Shown here: positions 3,201 through 34,610 of the stretch, piece by piece
Layout of the letters: every line of letters begins with the position of its first letter
How positions within the stretch are numbered: position 1 is the first letter of the stretch
NCBI GenBank assembly: GCA_963737655.1
Contig: CAVTTN010000002.1
Coordinates: forward strand, 4,704,001 to 4,768,000
Direction of reading: 5' to 3'
DNA length: 64,000 bases
From: an uncultured Planctomycetota bacterium
GTDB taxonomy: Bacteria; Planctomycetota; Planctomycetia; Isosphaerales; Isosphaeraceae
Made by a program: the position numbers and the translations under genes
The notes under the pieces: generated by a model
What the model was told of the DNA's origin: nothing
The model's database searches: none
The model's input: only the letters and a program-made list of their open reading frames with translations

Positions 3201-5189
3201 CGGGTCGGCGTCGCGGACGGCCTCGGCCGTCTTGATCGTCTCGGCCTCGAACAGGTCCATCAGGCCTCCGTAGAGGTTGATGCAGTTGATGTACAGATAC
3301 TCGTTCTCGATCGACCACAGCATGACCGACGGATGGTTGCGCTCGCCTTTGACCTGCGCCACCACCTGATCTCGCCAGTTTTGCATCAGGTCCATCTTGA
3401 TTTCGGACTTGTACTTCGCCTTGAGCTTCGGGTCGTTCTCGATGGCCATGTAGCCGATCCCCTCGCCGTCGAGCATCCCCGACCGGCGGACGACCACGCC
3501 GTTCCTGTCGAGGAAGTCGAGGGCCGGATCGGGCGGCATGTCCATCCACGACGTCCCCCAGAATCGCATGAACGTCTGGTTCGACTTGCGATAGAAATCG
3601 ACCCATTCTTTCGGGGTCGCGTGATTGTGGGTGTCGGCCCAGCCGTGCCAGGGGACGCCGTTCAGGAGGAAGTCCTTGCCCGAGATCGTCCACTCGCGGA
3701 AGCCGAACGGGACCTCGCCGACGTCGATCGGCTTGCCGCCCTCGCGGACCGTCGTCCGGAGCCGGTACATGGTCGGGTCGTCGGGCCACCAGGGCTTCGC
3801 GTCGGGCCAGGGGAACGCGGCCTTGATCACCGAATCGCTCGGCTTGATGGGGACCGGCGGGAACGCCCTGGCGACCCGGCCCGAGGCGTCGATCGCCTCG
3901 CAGATCACCTCGCCCTTCGTCCCGCGGTTCACCGAGACCTCGACGCCCAGCTCCTTCCTGGCGATCGACGGCTTGCAGAAGACGTCCGACGCATAGGTCG
4001 GCCCCGCGCAGACCAATTCCGGCGTGACGAGGATTCCCGACTCGGGATGGGCCCAGACCGGATAGGCCATGTCCTGGAAGCCGTCGCCGAAGAACTTCCT
4101 GGGCAGGTTGAACGCCTTGCGGAGCTTCATCGGATCCTCGGGGTCGGCCGCCCGGCCGTACCAGGCGTCCCGAATCCCGACCCAGACCTCGTTCACCCCC
4201 GGCTTGATCCCCTTCGTCACGTCAATCTGCACTCGCGCGAATGGATTCTTGTCGAAACCACAATAGACCCCGTTCACGAACACCGTCGTGTTCAGATTAT
4301 TCTGAGGGAACACAAGAAAGAACGACTTGCCGACAGCCGAGGCCGGCACCTCGACGCGCGTCCGATACCAGAGGCGATGGGCGAAGACGAGGTCGGGCCT
4401 CAGCGTGTTCTTGTCGCCGGGGACCGGGATGCCTTTCCAGAACGTGGTTTTCGGGAGGTTTTTCAGGGGTTCCGCGACCTCGCCGGGCATCTGCTCGTCG
4501 TCCCGGCAAACCTCCCAGAGGCCCTTGAGCTCGACCGACGATCGCCGCCCGTCGGCGGCCGGTTCGGGGAGGCGGAAGACGACCTTCTCGGCCTGGCGAT
4601 CGCGGGCGTCGCGGCCGTCGTCGCCGGGCCGGAACGGGCCGTTGGGGGTAAACTTGCCGGGATGAAGACAGAGGGCGTCGAGCGCCACGAGGATGCGGGC
4701 GGTCTGCCCCTTGTCGTCCTTCGTCTTCGGGGCGCGGATTTCCAGGGTGTGCTCGCCGGCCGTCAGGCGACGGTCCCCCAGCTTCAGCCAGGCGACCTCG
4801 CAGAAGAAGTCGATCTCCATGAGGTCGGTCGTGAGCTCGTCGGGATTCGAGCGGGTCCAGGCCCCGCCATCGATCCGCCAGTCGATCGGGGAGCGGACGA
4901 ACTCGAATCCGAGACGCGCCCAGACCTCATAAGACGCCTCACCCTTGGAGGTGAGCTTATAAGAAAACAGGGCCCCGTCGGCCGGGACGTCCTTCTCGAC
5001 CTTGTCGGCATCGATCGACAGATGCAGCCATTTTTCGCCGGAAAGGAACGTCTTGTTCCCCCATCCGGCGAGGTTCGCCTTGACGTTGGAGGCCGTCGGG
5101 GCCTCGCCCTCGATCCAGACGGGTTCGTGGGCCCGCGTCGGCGAGGCGAGGCAGGCCGCGACCAGGGCGGCCGGGAGGAGCGATCTCAT
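221..5189 (-). CDS. Large exported glycoside hydrolase family 2-like multidomain protein (~1650 aa), split by a 1-nt frameshift near 2940
   Basis: Signal peptide MRSLLPAALVAACLASPTRA; GH2 motifs FGFREW...FLLNG, RNHPSVMLWSIENE, DPTRP. ORFs 2736-5369 and 221-2911 join as ...FLGQQ/GSRRAVGIVARML. Confidence 0.8.
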
Positions 5190-11004: not shown

Positions 11005-12504
11005 ATGAGCGTTCGAACGATCCTCGGGGCGGTGCTCGCCTCCTCGGCGATCTCGGGAGCGGCCCTGGCGGCCGACCCCCCTCTGGCCGATCAACTCGTC
11101 GGGCTCGGCCTCCAGGCTCGGAAGGCCGGGCAGGCCGGGCAGGCCGAGCGGTTCTATCGCCGGGCCCTGGAACTGAGTCCCGGACATCCCGAGGCGCATC
11201 GAGGGATCAACCAACTCCGGCTCGTCGTCCGGGCCCGGGGGACGGCGGAGAGCGCCTCGGCCCCCGGGCCGGGCCAGGCCACCCTCGAACGCGCGGAGCA
11301 ATTCCGGAGGATCCTGGTCCAGCAACTCACCGCGGCCACCGGGGAGAGGATCGCCCAGGCCCGCGACGAGCTCGATCGCTACAATCCCGAGGGCGCCCTG
11401 AATCTCCTCCGACTGGGAATGACGGCCGTCTCGGGCGACGACCAGGTGCCGGCCTCGGTTCGAGACGCCCTGATCGGCCGCCTTCGGGCCGAGTATGCCG
11501 CAACGGTCCGGCGAGAGGAGGACGTTCAACTCCACCAGGCCGAGACGTTCCGCCTCCAGCAAGTCGCCCAGCAACGTGCCCGCGTCCTGGAACAGCTTGA
11601 GACGAACCAGGAGACCGTCAACGCCCTGATGACGCGATTTGATTCCTTGATGGCTCAGGGTCAGTACAACGTCCTGTTCAACGGCGGCACCGGCAACATC
11701 GCCAGGGCCATCGCCCCGTTCGCCGAGGCCCACCTGTTCGCCCAGCAGGCTCGCGCCCTCGACCCCAACGACCCAACCCCCGCCGTCGGCCTCGACGTCA
11801 GCCAGTTCATCGGCTCGCTGGCCAATGAGCTCTCGTTCGAGGAACTGAAGGAATATCGATTCCTCCTGACCATGAACGACGTGACGCGAGCCAGCGTCCC
11901 ATTCCCCGACACCATCACCATCGAGTACCCGGACGCCGAACATTGGCGAGAAATCTCCGAGAAACGCATCAAGCGGTACGAGAGCGTGTCGCTCGACTCC
12001 CGGGACGCCAGGAGCCAGGCCATCCTCGCCAAGCTGGATCAGCCCGTGTCGATGCCTTTCGGCAACGAGACGCCTCTTGAGGACGTGATCAAGTACGTCA
12101 AATCCTCAACCACGGATGCGGCAATGCCCCAGGGCATCCCGATTTACGTCGATCCGGTCGGCCTCCAGGAAGCGGAGAAGACGATGGCCTCGCCCATCAC
12201 TCTGAACCTCGATGGCGTCCCCTTGAAGAAGTCGTTGAAGCTCTTGCTGAAGCAGTTGGACCTGACCTACACGGTCAAGGACGGGCTGCTGACCATCACC
12301 TCGACGGCCTCGAAGGACCAGCCGACCGAGATCCGCGTCTACCCCGTGGCCGACCTCGCCATCATCCCGTTCTCGCTCCTGGGAGGCGGAGGCGGTGGTG
12401 GTGGCGGATTCGGCGGAGGTGGAGGCGGGTTCGGCGGCGGAGGACTCGGGGGCGGAGGCGGAGGACTCGGAGGCGGAGGCGGGTTCGGCGCCGGGGCCCG
12501 GTGA
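11005..12504 (+). CDS. Exported protein with TPR-like N-terminus, secretin-N/STN-like domain and Gly-rich tail
   Basis: Signal peptide; ETPLEDVIKYV...ITLNLDGVPLKKSLKLLLKQLDLTYTVKDGLLTITS...RVYPVADL; ends in GGGGF/GGGGL repeats. Confidence 0.75.
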   Translation: MSVRTILGAVLASSAISGAALAADPPLADQLVGLGLQARKAGQAGQAERFYRRALELSPGHPEAHRGINQLRLVVRARGTAESASAPGPGQATLERAEQFRRILVQQLTAATGERIAQARDELDRYNPEGALNLLRLGMTAVSGDDQVPASVRDALIGRLRAEYAATVRREEDVQLHQAETFRLQQVAQQRARVLEQLETNQETVNALMTRFDSLMAQGQYNVLFNGGTGNIARAIAPFAEAHLFAQQARALDPNDPTPAVGLDVSQFIGSLANELSFEELKEYRFLLTMNDVTRASVPFPDTITIEYPDAEHWREISEKRIKRYESVSLDSRDARSQAILAKLDQPVSMPFGNETPLEDVIKYVKSSTTDAAMPQGIPIYVDPVGLQEAEKTMASPITLNLDGVPLKKSLKLLLKQLDLTYTVKDGLLTITSTASKDQPTEIRVYPVADLAIIPFSLLGGGGGGGGGFGGGGGGFGGGGLGGGGGGLGGGGGFGAGAR

Positions 12505-12585
12505 TCGATGGCCGATTTCGTCCCCGATTCCCAGAGGCACTATCGAGAGTCAGTTGACCTCAGATCACCAGAAAGGCAGGGATCG

Positions 12586-29580: not shown

Positions 29581-30999
29581 TCAGAATTGCTTCCGCTGCC
29601 GGCTGGAGGGGATGCGGAGGGCCTTGCGATACTTGGTCACCGTCCTCCGGGCGACGGGGAAGCCGCTTTGCGCCAGGGCATCGACGATTTCTTCGTCGGA
29701 CAACGGGCTCTGCTTGTCTTCCTTGGCGATGATTTCCAGCAATTTCTGCTTGATCGTCTCCCAGGCCACTTCCTCGCCGTCGGTCGTGGTGGTCCCCCCG
29801 CCGAAGAAACGCTTCAGGGGGAAGATGCCCCGGGGGGTCTGGACCCACTTGTCATCGACGGCCCGGCTGACCGTGGTCACGTGGACGTGGACCTGGTCGG
29901 CGATCTGCTGCATCTTCAGCGGCTCGATCCACTCCGGGCCCTTGTCCAGGAAGTCCTTCTGGTGCTCGATGATCGCCCGGGCGACCTTGAGCAGGGTATT
30001 CCGCCGTTGCTCGATCGATTCGATCAGCCAGCGGGCGGACTGGATCTTCTTCTGGATGAACTCGCGGGCCGCGGCGTCGCCCTGCTTGTTCTTCAGGAGC
30101 TTCTGGTAGTATCGCGAGATGGCGAGCTGGGGGGTGTGCTCGTCCTGGAGCCGGACCTGATAGACGCCGTGTTCGTCGGCCTCGACGACCAGGTCGGGCA
30201 GGACGTACTGGGCGCCGGTGGCGATGAACCGGGAGCCGGGGCGGGGGTCGAGGTGGCGGAGGTGGCCGATGGCTTCCTTGATCTGATCGATCGACAGGCC
30301 GGTCTTCTTCTCGATGGCCGGCAGGCGGTTCTGCTGGAGGTCGTCGATGTGATTGGAGATCAGGACGTAGAGGGTCTCTCGGCTGGGGGTCTCGGGCGTG
30401 AGCTGCAAGAGGAGGCATTCACGGAGGTCTCGGGCGCCGACGCCCAGCGGGTCGAGCTTCTGGACCAGGCGGAGGGCCTCGTCGGCCTCGGCCATCGTGG
30501 CGTCTCCGGCGAAGTCGCGAAGGGCCTCCTGCAGGCTGACTTTCAGGTAGCCATTCTCGTCCAGGTTGTGGATCAGGTATTCGGCCAGGGCGCGGACGGT
30601 GGGATCGGTGTCGAGGAAGGCGAGCTGATCGGCCAAATCGTCGTGGAGGGACCGGGGGCGTGAGGCCATGTTCTGCATGGCGTCGTGCTTGCGGTCGGCC
30701 TCCTCGCTGAGGGCGGCCCGGCTGGGGCGGTGGGCGTCCTGGAACGAGTCATTCCAGTCGTCGCCGTCCTCGAACGGGGCCTCTTCGGCCGGGGCTTCGA
30801 CCGGGGCGGGTTCCTCGCCGTCGGTCTCCCCCGGGGCGGTCTCGCGAAGCTCCAGGACGGGGTTCTCGCTCAGCTCCTGGTCGATTCGCTCCTGGAGCGC
30901 CATCAGCGGCAGTTGGAGGATTTCCATCGACTGGATCATCCGCGGCGCCATGCGAAGCCGCATGTCGGTCCGCATCTGCTGCGAGGTGTCGAGACGCAT
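29581..30999 (-). CDS. rpoN: RNA polymerase sigma-54 factor
   Basis: LQLP...ENPVLE, GVGARDLRECLLLQ, TTVSRAV, RpoN box ARRTVTKYR. Confidence 0.97.
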   Translation of the reverse strand: MRLDTSQQMRTDMRLRMAPRMIQSMEILQLPLMALQERIDQELSENPVLELRETAPGETDGEEPAPVEAPAEEAPFEDGDDWNDSFQDAHRPSRAALSEEADRKHDAMQNMASRPRSLHDDLADQLAFLDTDPTVRALAEYLIHNLDENGYLKVSLQEALRDFAGDATMAEADEALRLVQKLDPLGVGARDLRECLLLQLTPETPSRETLYVLISNHIDDLQQNRLPAIEKKTGLSIDQIKEAIGHLRHLDPRPGSRFIATGAQYVLPDLVVEADEHGVYQVRLQDEHTPQLAISRYYQKLLKNKQGDAAAREFIQKKIQSARWLIESIEQRRNTLLKVARAIIEHQKDFLDKGPEWIEPLKMQQIADQVHVHVTTVSRAVDDKWVQTPRGIFPLKRFFGGGTTTTDGEEVAWETIKQKLLEIIAKEDKQSPLSDEEIVDALAQSGFPVARRTVTKYRKALRIPSSRQRKQF

Positions 31000-31150
31000 A
31001 ATCCTGGGTCCCGCCGCGAAGGAGAGAGGGAAGCGGTCGTCCACGATGGCCTAGACGGCCCGGCCGGACCTCGGCGGAAAGGCGTTGGGGCCGTCAGCCC
31101 ACGGTGCAAATCTTATACCAAGACTCGCGTCAGGGCAAGAGGGGACCGCC

Positions 31151-31771
31151 TCAGAACCGCTGGCGACCGGCGAGGGCGTCGGCCAGCATCTCCTTGTTGG
31201 CGAACTCCAGGGCGCCGCCGGAGGCCAGCCCGCGCGCCAGTCGCGTCACGGGAACTCCTGTCTCGGAAAGGGCTTGTGCCACCAGGAGCGCCGTGCCGTC
31301 GCCTTCGAGGTTCGGGTTCGTGGCCAGGATCACCTCGGAGACTCCGCCGGCCCGGACGCGATCGGCCAGCGCCTCGATGGTGAGCTGCTCGGGCCCGAGG
31401 CCTTGCAACGGCGCGAGCCGGCCGAGCAGGACGTGGTAGACCCCGCGGTAGGTTCCGGCCTTTTCCAAAGCGAGGAGGTCGCGAGGCTGTTCGACCACGC
31501 ACACCAGCGACGCCTCCCGCCGCGGATCTCGGCAGACGCTGCACAGCTCGTGGTCGGATTCGGTCAGGTGGAAGCATCGGGTGCAGTGGCGGATGCGGTC
31601 CTTGGCGTCCCGGATCGCGTCGGCCAGCGCCAGCGCCTCTTCCGGCGGGCACTTGAGGAGATGATGCGCGAGCCTCTCCGCGCTCTTGGCGCCGATGCCC
31701 GGGAGCCGGCCCAGGGCGGCGACCAGGCGATCCACGGCCGAGCTGACCCCGCCTCCGTCCTGGATCGCCAC
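31151..31771 (-). CDS. recR: Recombination protein RecR
   Basis: LPGIGAKSAERLA, C4 zinc finger, VCVVE, ILATNPNLEGDGTA. Confidence 0.97.
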   Translation of the reverse strand: MAIQDGGGVSSAVDRLVAALGRLPGIGAKSAERLAHHLLKCPPEEALALADAIRDAKDRIRHCTRCFHLTESDHELCSVCRDPRREASLVCVVEQPRDLLALEKAGTYRGVYHVLLGRLAPLQGLGPEQLTIEALADRVRAGGVSEVILATNPNLEGDGTALLVAQALSETGVPVTRLARGLASGGALEFANKEMLADALAGRQRF

Positions 31772-31774
31772 GGC

Positions 31775-32119
31775 TCAGGCCCCTCCGCCCATCAGGCCCG
31801 AGAGGCCGGGGATCGGCAGGCCGCCGGCCACCCCCTGGATCGATTTGGCCGCCGCTTCCCTCGCCTTGGTCATCGCCTGGTTCACGGCGGCCGTCACGAG
31901 GTCCTCGAGCAATTCGCGGTCGCCGTCGGCCAGGAGCTTCGGATCAATCCTCACCGAGAGCAGCTCCATCCGGCCGTTGGCCTTCGCCGTGACGACCCCT
32001 CCGCCGGCCGAGCCCTCGACCTGAAGCTGGCCGAGCGCCTCGGTGGCCTTCTCGACGCTCTCGCGGATCTTCCCCGCGTTCTTCATCAGGTCGGCCAGGT
32101 TACCAAGGTTGCCGAACAT
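31775..32119 (-). CDS. ybaB: Nucleoid-associated protein YbaB/EbfC
   Basis: VEGSAGGGVV...DRELLEDLVTAAVNQA; sits between dnaX and recR. Confidence 0.95.
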   Translation of the reverse strand: MFGNLGNLADLMKNAGKIRESVEKATEALGQLQVEGSAGGGVVTAKANGRMELLSVRIDPKLLADGDRELLEDLVTAAVNQAMTKAREAAAKSIQGVAGGLPIPGLSGLMGGGA

Positions 32120-32186
32120 GATGAGGGCTCCTCGAAGGGCGGGGACAAGGTTCGGTTGGGTCCGGTTCGATTCGATTCGGTTCGCT

Positions 32187-34016
32187 TCAGGAGACTTCCG
32201 GGTCGTCGCCGAGTTCCAGGTGGATCGGGACGGGGGCCGTTTCAAACAGGTCCATCAGGCCGCGGACCCACGGATCGGATTCGAGCTTGCGGGCGAGCTC
32301 GGCCTTGCTCGACGAGGGGGACGGCGACGATCGGCCCTCCTCCTCGGCGGACGGCTCGAACCGGACGGCCACCGCCCGGCCCAGGATCTCGGCCAGGGCC
32401 GATTCGACGGCCGGGCGCGCCTCCTCGAACCGATTCGCCTCCGCATTGTACTTCGACCCGACCGCCACGACCAGCGTCCCGGAGGGTTCGACGGCCGAGG
32501 GCCGGACCTGGCTCAGGAGGAACCGCCCGGTGCCGATCCGACCGATCATCTCGGCCCAGGCGACCCGGGCGGCGTCCAGGTCCGGGGCCCTCGAAGGCTC
32601 GGCGATCGGCCGAGGGGCGGGCTCGGCCGGCGGAGGGGGCGTCGGGGCCGGAACCGGAGCCAAAGCCGGTGGAGCGGGACGGCTCGGGGCCTTCGACGCC
32701 GTCGAATGGCCATTTCGAGCCGGCTCGGGCGTCGGCGCGACCGGGCGGGGCAAGACCGGGCGAGGCGGAGGGGCCGGTTCGTCAGCGGCTAACTTTTTTT
32801 TTACGGTCGGCGGGCCGTCGCCGGCCATCGCCGAGAGCCGGCCGATCAATTCGGCGACCTCGGCGAGGTCTTCGAGCCGAGCCACGCGGATCAGGGCGAT
32901 TTCGACGATCAATCGCGGATACGAGCTGCCCCGGAGCCGTCCCCGGGCCTCGGCCAGGATCTGCATCGCGGCCAGGATGGTGTCGATCGGCATGCGGTCG
33001 GCGATCGCGCGGAGCCTGGCGGATTGGCCGGGGGCCGCCGCCAGCAGGGGGACGCCGGCGCCCAGGGCCGTGGCCATCACGTCCCGGAGGAAATCGACCG
33101 ACCCGGCCAGGAGGTCCGACGGCTGGACGCCGGTCAGGCTCGCCGCCTCGACCAGGGAGAGCACCCGGGCCGCGTCGCGATCGGCCAGGGCATCCAGGAG
33201 GTCCAGGACGCGCTCATCGGGGGCGATCCCCAGGGCGCGGTGGACGGCCTCGTTGCTCAGCGACTTCCCGCCGTAGGAAAGCATTTGCTCCAGCAAGGAC
33301 TGGGCATCCCGCATCGAGCCCGAGGCCCGCCGGGCGATCGTGGCCAGGGCGTCGGGGTCGGCCTGGACGCCCTCGTTCTGGCAGATCTCGGCCAGGGTCG
33401 CGGCGATCTGGTCGGGGGTGATCCCGGCGAAGTCGTACCTCTGGCACCGCGAGAGGACGGTGATCGGGATCTTGTTCGGCTCGGTCGTGGCGAAGAAGAA
33501 CTTGACGTGCTCGGGAGGCTCCTCCAGCGTCTTCAACAGGGCGTTGAAGGCGCCGGTGGAGAGCATGTGGACCTCGTCGATGTAATAGATCTTGAATCGC
33601 GACCGGCTGGGCCGAAGGCCGGCGTTCTGACGGAGCTCGCGGACGGCCTCGACGCCGTTATTGCTGGCCCCGTCGATCTCGATCACGTCCACGTCCTGGC
33701 CGACGGAGATGGCCCGGCAGATGTCGCAGACGTTGCAGGGCGTCTCGGTCGGCCCGGTCACGCAGTTCAGGCACTTGGCAAAAATCCGGGCGATCGAGGT
33801 CTTGCCGACCCCCCGGGTCCCGCAAAACAGGTACGCATGAGTGACCCGATTGAGGCGGATGGCATTGCGGAGGGCCTGGACGACGTGATCCTGGCCCACG
33901 ACGTCCTCGAACGTCTGAGGGCGATACCGCCGGGCCACGACGGTATACGACGCGCCGTCTCCGGGGGCTTCGATCGTCGCTGGGGTCCGTACCACATCGC
34001 GCTCCGTCGCTTCCAT
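32187..34016 (-). CDS. dnaX: DNA polymerase III subunits gamma/tau
   Basis: ARRYRPQTF, GTRGVGKTS, DEVHMLS, SRCQ, GSMRDA. Confidence 0.97.
   Translation of the reverse strand: MEATERDVVRTPATIEAPGDGASYTVVARRYRPQTFEDVVGQDHVVQALRNAIRLNRVTHAYLFCGTRGVGKTSIARIFAKCLNCVTGPTETPCNVCDICRAISVGQDVDVIEIDGASNNGVEAVRELRQNAGLRPSRSRFKIYYIDEVHMLSTGAFNALLKTLEEPPEHVKFFFATTEPNKIPITVLSRCQRYDFAGITPDQIAATLAEICQNEGVQADPDALATIARRASGSMRDAQSLLEQMLSYGGKSLSNEAVHRALGIAPDERVLDLLDALADRDAARVLSLVEAASLTGVQPSDLLAGSVDFLRDVMATALGAGVPLLAAAPGQSARLRAIADRMPIDTILAAMQILAEARGRLRGSSYPRLIVEIALIRVARLEDLAEVAELIGRLSAMAGDGPPTVKKKLAADEPAPPPRPVLPRPVAPTPEPARNGHSTASKAPSRPAPPALAPVPAPTPPPPAEPAPRPIAEPSRAPDLDAARVAWAEMIGRIGTGRFLLSQVRPSAVEPSGTLVVAVGSKYNAEANRFEEARPAVESALAEILGRAVAVRFEPSAEEEGRSSPSPSSSKAELARKLESDPWVRGLMDLFETAPVPIHLELGDDPEVS
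32782..32804 (-). promoter_or_regulatory. Putative programmed frameshift/transcriptional slippage site in dnaX
   Basis: mRNA GTA AAA AAA AAG TTA GCC GCT GA: an A9 run, with TGA in the -1 frame and TAG in the +1 frame within 12 nt. Confidence 0.8.
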
Positions 34017-34049
34017 CCTGCCTTCCGGGCAGTGCCTCGCTGGGCCTCG

Positions 34050-34147
34050 GAGTGCTGAGTGCTGAGTGCTGAGTGCTGAGACTCTACCTTGTTTTGCGAC
34101 GGTCTGAGGCTTCGGACTCAGCACTCATTCCTCGGCACTCCGCACTT
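34050..34147. repeat. Heptamer tandem repeat (AGTGCTG)4 with inverted degenerate copies forming a hairpin
   Basis: Tandem at 34051-34080; CTCAGCACTC, CGGCACTC and CGCACT downstream. Confidence 0.8.
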
Positions 34148-34166
34148 CTTTCTGGAGAGGGGGCCG

Positions 34167-34279
34167 GGGAGAGCCGGGGAGGTGCTCCCGGGCGCATGAA
34201 GGCGATGCTTATGGCTGCTGCGTTCCCGCCCTGACCAGGTTCGCAAGCCCCCATCGCCCGGGTCCCCCCCGGCTCACCC
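34167..34279 (-). ncRNA. ffs: Signal recognition particle RNA (4.5S)
   Basis: Minus strand GAACCTGGTCAGG-GCG-GGAA-CGC-AGCAGCC (helix 8) inside a long stem; usual position upstream of dnaX-ybaB-recR. Ends approximate. Confidence 0.9.
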
Positions 34280-34402
34280 TGACCCCCGCCCCTTTGCTCG
34301 CTCGCTCGCTCGCCGGCCGGCCGACTGGGCACGGGCCTCCGGGCTCATTTTGGGATTGTCGGACATCGGAGGCCGGCATGCAAGGCCAGATCGCCGGGCG
34401 TG

Positions 34403-34610
34403 CAGGGCCGTTCCCTTCTCGACGCGGCGCCTGCCGTAAGCTCCTGGGGTGTCACGAGTTGCGAAGCCGGAACCCGTGGGCCGTCCTTCACGGGTTCCGA
34501 GGACGCAACCCGTGCCAACCACGGATGTTATGGCTTGGGTTGACTCGAAAACGAAACGGAACCCGAGCCACGCCGAACGTTACGGGTTCGATATTCTCGA
34601 AAACGAAACG
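34403..34610. repeat. Dispersed intergenic element, REP family E, copy 2
   Basis: Homologous to 15118-15237, with one extra REP unit and a duplicated CTCGAAAACGAAACGG segment. Confidence 0.8.

Follow-up and report, generated by a model that had tools for sequence, protein, structure and literature searches.

A run of nine A residues in the dnaX gene of an uncultured Isosphaeraceae bacterium (Planctomycetota) is almost certainly a real recoding site, and it probably works by programmed transcriptional slippage of the Thermus type. The gene lies on the reverse strand of the 64,000-nucleotide stretch of contig CAVTTN010000002.1 that was analysed here (the window; Table 1). Thermus thermophilus dnaX also carries nine A, and makes tau from mRNAs with 9 + 3n A and gamma from the rest (PMC1088944; PMC5009743). 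Transcriptional slippage in that gene goes back to Larsen et al. (2000), as told in PMC1088944, PMC5009743 and PMC3711429. The planctomycete gene resembles it in having nine sense-strand A within one tau ORF, after domain III, with near stops in both shifted frames and a predicted short product that lacks the C-terminal part. It differs in belonging to another phylum, and in that the site is seen class-wide (9 or 10 A, in any phase), with the run lost in some genes and the layout reversed in rare cases. Heterogeneous mRNA and a gamma/tau ratio of about 1:1 are further features of the Thermus type.

The dnaX gene is a single ORF whose ATG start is assumed, as the open frame extends back to a GTG at 34124. 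Codons 405–412 read GTA AAA AAA AAG TTA GCC GCT GAC, as the sequence-only reading had given them; re-reading on both strands returned the same letters, and the Pfam matches place the site just past the clamp-loader domains, where that reading had put it. The A/T-ending codons are indeed unusual for this gene, as had been remarked: its GC3 is 0.88, its sole two AAA codons and its sole TTA codon sit at the A9 site, and one of its two GTA codons is found there as well. One added A (−1 frame) leads to a 411-aa product ending in VKKKVSR, and one lost A (+1 frame) to a 408-aa product ending in VKKS; the shifted-frame ends K-V-S-R-TGA and S-TAG read earlier from the sequence were reproduced on recomputation. 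Because domain III ends at residue 393, both short forms would retain domains I–III. Past the run, the tau C-terminal profile matches frame 0 (E 7.7e-24), which agrees with a true run length of nine, this length being an assembly reading from an assembly with at least one probable indel elsewhere. A promoter and terminator scan of window positions 31000–34600 gave nothing better than shuffles.

Table 1. Features of the dnaX region; nucleotide positions refer to the window, residue numbers to DnaX.
Feature	Position	Strand	Remarks
dnaX	32187..34016	−	ATG 34016 to stop 32187; single ORF, 609-aa tau
Pfam DNA_pol3_delta2	DnaX residues 41–197
Pfam DNAX_ATPase_lid	DnaX residues 203–250
Pfam DNA_pol3_gamma3 (domain III)	DnaX residues 254–393
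A9 run, putative slippage site	32794..32802	−	codons 405–408; T9 on + strand
TGA, −1 frame	32782..32784	−	would be reached with 10 A in mRNA or by −1 ribosomal shift
TAG, +1 frame	32789..32791	−	would be reached with 8 or 11 A in mRNA
Predicted RNA hairpin just 5′ of A9 run	32804..32840	−	−23.4 kcal/mol
ybaB/ebfC	31775..32119	−	directly downstream of dnaX; PF02575
recR	31151..31771	−	RecR_HhH, RecR_ZnF, Toprim_4
rpoN (sigma-54)	29581..31044	−	after dnaX-ybaB-recR, same strand

Runs of this length are rare in the source genome (7.63 Mb, 68.7% GC), which has three A/T runs of nine and none longer. Across its 2495 long ORFs, lysine is encoded by AAG 39504 times and by AAA 4023 times, and AAA-AAA accounts for 51 of 1998 Lys-Lys pairs. 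The A9 run in dnaX is beyond chance.

We collected dnaX loci, among the matches listed, from close relatives, the phylum, the class, family f6 and named genomes; some matches near contig ends were left out of the sampling. The same-class set, with tool-assigned class labels, comprised 130 genomes after duplicate removal, and 127 after three incomplete loci (L009, L029 and L315) had been dropped. The longest A run was scored between 10 and 100 codons past the domain-III anchor. Conservation of the run among planctomycete dnaX genes had been proposed as a check of the sequence-only reading, and the run proved to be conserved: at least 9 A were present in 104 of the 127 genes (9 in 71, 10 in 32, 11 in 1), so that 103 of these 104 runs are of 9 or 10, and all 10 further dnaX genes beyond the 127 had 9–10 A with near stops. 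Shorter runs were of 7–8 A in 3 genes and of 5 or less in 20. Equal intervals in the 5′ part of the same genes served as a control, and none of 382 reached 8 A. As related genomes are not independent, these conservation counts, together with the p-values, are overstated.

Of the 14 class families that gave usable data, 12 have the run; runs of at least 9 were absent from families f8 (0/5) and f87 (0/2). The 23 of 127 class genes that have no run of nine imply that the device is dispensable or replaced there. Caulobacter crescentus likewise has two DnaX forms from one gene, but makes them by ClpXP proteolysis and without a recoding signal (bioRxiv 10.1101/2022.11.10.516041); by analogy, one may guess that processing of this type might serve the run-less planctomycetes. 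Among named loci, a set overlapping the class sample, 52 of 72 usable (of 80) had the run. In other classes it was present in 13 of 130 usable loci (of 134), some of them in AT-rich genes and maybe by chance. A runs in the AT-rich genomes of other classes (e.g., family f34) were not taken to be the same site, their place not being fixed and the near stops often missing. On a midpoint-rooted FastTree tree of 300 DnaX proteins, built without a topology test, the run occurs in 129 of 164 tips of the Planctomycetia branch plus a four-tip sister group, with several, clustered losses, and this distribution suggests that the dnaX A run is an ancestral site. Its position ranges from about 18 to about 95 codons past the domain-III anchor, and the stops track the run. 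Tandem runs, A9-TTG-A9 or A9-TTG-A10, were observed in four dnaX loci (L123, L124, L337 and L345), and a fifth (L382) has the same flank.

Three of the 104 run-bearing genes, which have an upstream frame break, were set aside, leaving 101, of which 100 have tau in frame. The codon phase at the start of the run is 2 in 62 genes, 1 in 34 and 0 in 5, and the base right after it is C in 51, G in 37 and T in 13. Of the 100 genes, 93 have a −1-frame stop within 30 nt and 91 have a +1-frame stop within that distance, compared with 24% and 26% of 15,827 downstream positions; both shifted frames are closed within 30 nt in 84 of 100 genes against a background of 6.6%. With labelled genera collapsed, the counts are 61/66, 60/66 and 55/66 for the −1 frame, the +1 frame and both, values that relatedness still inflates. 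The furthest stop among the class genes lies 57 nt away in the −1 frame and 211 nt away in the +1 frame. On sequence comparison, what is conserved is thus the Thermus signature, i.e., a length of 9–10, any phase and stops in both frames. The tau/gamma recoding reading first made from the window alone is backed by this conservation and by the near stops in both frames.

Losses of the run provide natural controls. Four genes (L058, L278, L280 and L282) of the clade to which the named Paludisphaera loci belong are without a run, and three of them keep Lys-Lys-Lys in mixed codons. The shifted-frame stops of these four lie 114–210 and 20–90 codons off, compared with 4 and 0 in their sister L279. 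Run and near stops were lost together in this clade.

Reversed layouts provide a second kind of control. In the complete genome of Tundrisphaera lichenicola P12 (L036), a run of 11 A at 3666–3676 is followed by TAG, and the −1 frame encodes the tau tail (match to the tau C-terminal profile with E 8e-32). In a further locus (L211), a run of 10 A is followed by a stop four codons on, and the tau tail is again in the −1 frame (E 3e-15). If those assemblies are right, full-length tau in both would depend on a shift at the run. A search of sequencing runs for L036 listed no RNA data set (best share of words 0.08), and reads from four of six runs gave one 181-nt contig over 3515–3695 (depth 2.7, 4 differences, no gap), which extends just 19 letters past the A11 where the threshold was 31, and so was not counted. 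Two-ORF, "reversed" dnaX genes with a poly-A of about 10 at the gamma/tau boundary were described by Antonov et al. (2013; PMC3711429), and L036 and L211, with tau in the −1 frame, resemble that layout. The window dnaX is unlike it, with tau in frame and no zero-frame stop after the run. For reversed dnaX, the portion of PMC3711429 that was available names Chlorobi species and no planctomycete, the species of its Figure S3 lying outside that portion.

In the mechanism that we favour, RNA polymerase would realign on the A9 run, which has about the length of the RNA–DNA hybrid, and would release mRNAs with nine A or a few more or fewer. Those with 9 or 9 + 3n A would be translated into the 609-aa tau, while all others would meet a stop 1–4 codons past the run and give gamma forms of 408–411 aa, in which the clamp-loader domains I–III are kept and the linker and C-terminal part are missing. 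We infer the slippage itself, the polymerase rather than the ribosome as the slipping agent, the product ratio and a place for gamma in the clamp loader. Enterobacterial polymerase slips on runs of at least 9, with insertions favoured (PMC6260861). The same source reports less slippage of the E. coli polymerase on A runs than on T runs, which counts against the slippage reading. Run length and the closure of both frames are conserved and the heptamer and stimulators are not, and this points to selection of the kind that polymerase slippage predicts.

It is improbable that gamma arises mainly through −1 ribosomal frameshifting of the E. coli type on A_AAA_AAG or A_AAA_AAN, with the 411-aa form as the only product. 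The E. coli dnaX −1 site combines A_AAA_AAG with a 5′ SD-like element and a 3′ stem-loop (PMC3711429; PMC5009743), and is shifty because E. coli has a single Lys tRNA, whose pairing with AAG is weak (PMC5009743). The window copy lies at a similar place in the gene, its run ends in an in-frame A_AAA_AAG and its −1 stop comes within a few codons. Any run of nine holds some A_AAA_AAN heptamer, so that a ribosomal share is possible. In 62 of 101 genes the last A of the run is the second base of a zero-frame codon, and the −1 stop is the tighter one (the furthest distances are given above), while A_AAA_AAG and A_AAA_AAA are the commonest −1 sites of IS elements (PMC4066793). The reversed dnaX cases, which all use the −1 frame, are predicted by slippage and by −1 frameshifting alike. 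The heptamer needs just 6–7 A, yet runs of 6–8 are nearly absent (3/127), and the +1 frame likewise closes early. Only 26 of 101 class genes have A_AAA_AAG in frame (16 of 66 with labelled genera collapsed).

The stimulators of the E. coli site fared no better in the comparison. In the window gene, an SD-like duplex with the 16S 3′ end is predicted at −3.5 kcal/mol; the element is not conserved, GGAG, GAGG or AGGA being present upstream of the run in just 20 of 101 genes. In 58 of 101 genes the duplex exceeds the gene controls in strength (median −0.7; the mean is distorted by an outlier). A 3′ stem-loop in the window gene is no better than shuffles (z +0.90, for folds without pseudoknots), and over 66 relatives 3′ structure gave no signal (mean z 0.05–0.13 at 0–10 nt). 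The hairpin 5′ of the window run has a z of −2.0, with 8 of 200 shuffles equally good. As a general stimulator, a 5′ hairpin was rejected: 64 of 101 genes beat their gene controls, but the signal was gone against dinucleotide shuffles. Structure near the run over 66 relatives has a mean z of −0.1 to −0.4, and the window-gene 5′ hairpin is not shared. Unlike E. coli with its sole Lys tRNA, the source genome encodes a tRNA-Lys(CUU); a tRNA-Lys(UUU) was not found by ARAGORN or a pattern search of the assembly, which is 87.7% complete. The sequence-only reading had seen both signatures in the site. The Thermus-type signature is the one conserved in the class; the comparison shows the E. coli signature of the window gene to be incidental.

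Quite unlikely is a second ribosomal route, in which ribosomes would pause and slide on the poly-A in both directions along mRNA of uniform length. Such sliding reaches several frames and ends at out-of-frame stops (PMC4363877), which fits the two-frame stops and the free phase, whereas in E. coli extracts A11 gave robust truncation and A9 or A10 little product (PMC4363877), and the runs here are nearly all of the latter two lengths. Least likely of all, with only a slim chance, the run would be no recoding site at all (but the trace of a Lys-Lys-Lys motif conserved in the protein, a slipped-strand switch acting on the DNA, or an error of assembly), an account that draws on the KKK retained in some run-less genes and on the probable indel elsewhere in the source assembly and that meets lysine codons which are 91% AAG in the source genome, the loss of both near stops in genes with KKK but without the run, stops that move along with the shifting run, the occurrence of both 9 and 10 A with an in-frame tau, whether the genome is closed or from short reads, and, for the DNA switch, the turning off of tau, which has been called essential (bioRxiv 10.1101/2022.11.10.516041).

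A second gene of the genome is a further candidate for recoding at an A9 run. The second A9 of the genome (C2:7349319–7349327, − strand; L381 and L392) lies at the end of a Gly/Met-tailed ORF. Its product, of roughly 570 aa, matches TPR weakly and has a tail rich in Gly and Met, and the ORF ends a few codons past the run, mostly as ...KKSN-stop. Our set for this gene comprised 30 loci (including relatives L393–L413 and L417), of which 22 were of the same family, 4 of these being cut by contig ends. Exactly 9 A were present in 19 loci, namely one f4 locus and all 18 same-family loci that extend to the site; 7 further homologs in the set are longer and more distant, with no A run of 8 or more. 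The longest ORF after the run is in the −1 frame in 16 of the 19, and is 423–493 aa long in 14. This following ORF is a conserved protein (profile match E 2e-129 in the source genome) with weak TPR/DUF2135 hints, and no start codon is shared among the loci. In the source genome, the −1 frame appears to hand over to frame 0 about 25 codons on, which is probably an assembly indel. An apparent in-frame fusion in L398 was rejected as an indel artefact in a Gly repeat, and similar doubt attaches to L404 and L411. With dnaX, this makes two conserved frame-transition sites among the three A9 runs of the genome, an argument for A9 being slippery in the lineage. The second gene does not separate polymerase from ribosome, as most of its sites hold an in-frame A_AAA_AAA. 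A paralog of the first half of this gene, 90% identical, is located in the window at 11788–12510 (+). It has no A run and stops right past the Gly-rich tail, after which the same frame stays open for 572 codons.

A different signal was found in family f18, from another class of the phylum, for which 28 dnaX loci (L353–L380) were sampled and 27 were complete, one being cut. In all 27, dnaX ends 27–43 codons past the domain-III anchor, with no A run over 5. In 20 of 27 the tau C-terminal profile had a −1-frame match, and no match fell in another frame. An in-frame C_CCN is present in 27 of 27 (CCCT 15, CCCC 9, CCCG 2, CCCA 1), always exactly 5 nt from an RGGYCR that opens a hairpin. This motif, which was defined on these same 27 genes, matched 0 of 9597 upstream codons and had one match outside f18 among other loci. 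The 6-bp base of the stem is complete in 24 of 27 genes compared with 21% in shuffles, with pairs counted per sequence, and compensatory changes (C-G to U-A) occur in 3. RNAalifold did not recover the hairpin on the f18 sites, whose loops differ in length and so misalign. In E. coli, tetramers of the type C_CCY cause −1 shifting at a modest level (PMC4066793). The f18 dnaX likely makes tau by a tetramer-type −1 ribosomal frameshift, a C_CCN signal of which no description was found in the literature looked through.

Taken together, we are moderately inclined to a joint reading in which A9 slippage would be an ancestral working tool of the Planctomycetia, used for truncation in dnaX and, through one added A, for an extension of roughly 440 aa in the TPR/Gly-Met gene, while f18 would obtain tau via an undescribed −1 shift at C_CCN 5 nt before a hairpin. 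For dnaX slippage, Thermus is usually the one organism cited, and here the same anatomy is the majority state in a class. No description of planctomycete dnaX slippage or frameshifting was found in print among papers available without subscription, where the sole mention, in PMC3711429, is a table row. The joint losses and reversed layouts are natural controls that make the role of gamma testable. Annotations of such genomes would miss the predicted second DnaX product, and would mis-call reversed genes as broken. The window site would be expected by specialists, and the second A9 gene and the f18 signal less so.

Several minor observations were made along the way. The short DnaX ORFs of families f51, f60 and f33 were considered as split genes and rejected, as they look like naturally short single ORFs. 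In two loci of family f47 (L236 and L237), dnaX is split and has no A run, and the C-terminal part of tau is read in the +1 frame; L237 has an ATG soon after the stop, so that the two parts may be distinct genes. At C2:1543110–1543157, about 25 kb from the tRNA-Lys(CUU) gene, 48 bases exactly repeat the 3′ part of that tRNA, as would be expected for an integration site. The third A9 of the genome (C2:3938149–3938157) is located immediately 5′ to the probable start of a gene, which we take to resemble an ECF sigma factor with WD40-like repeats.
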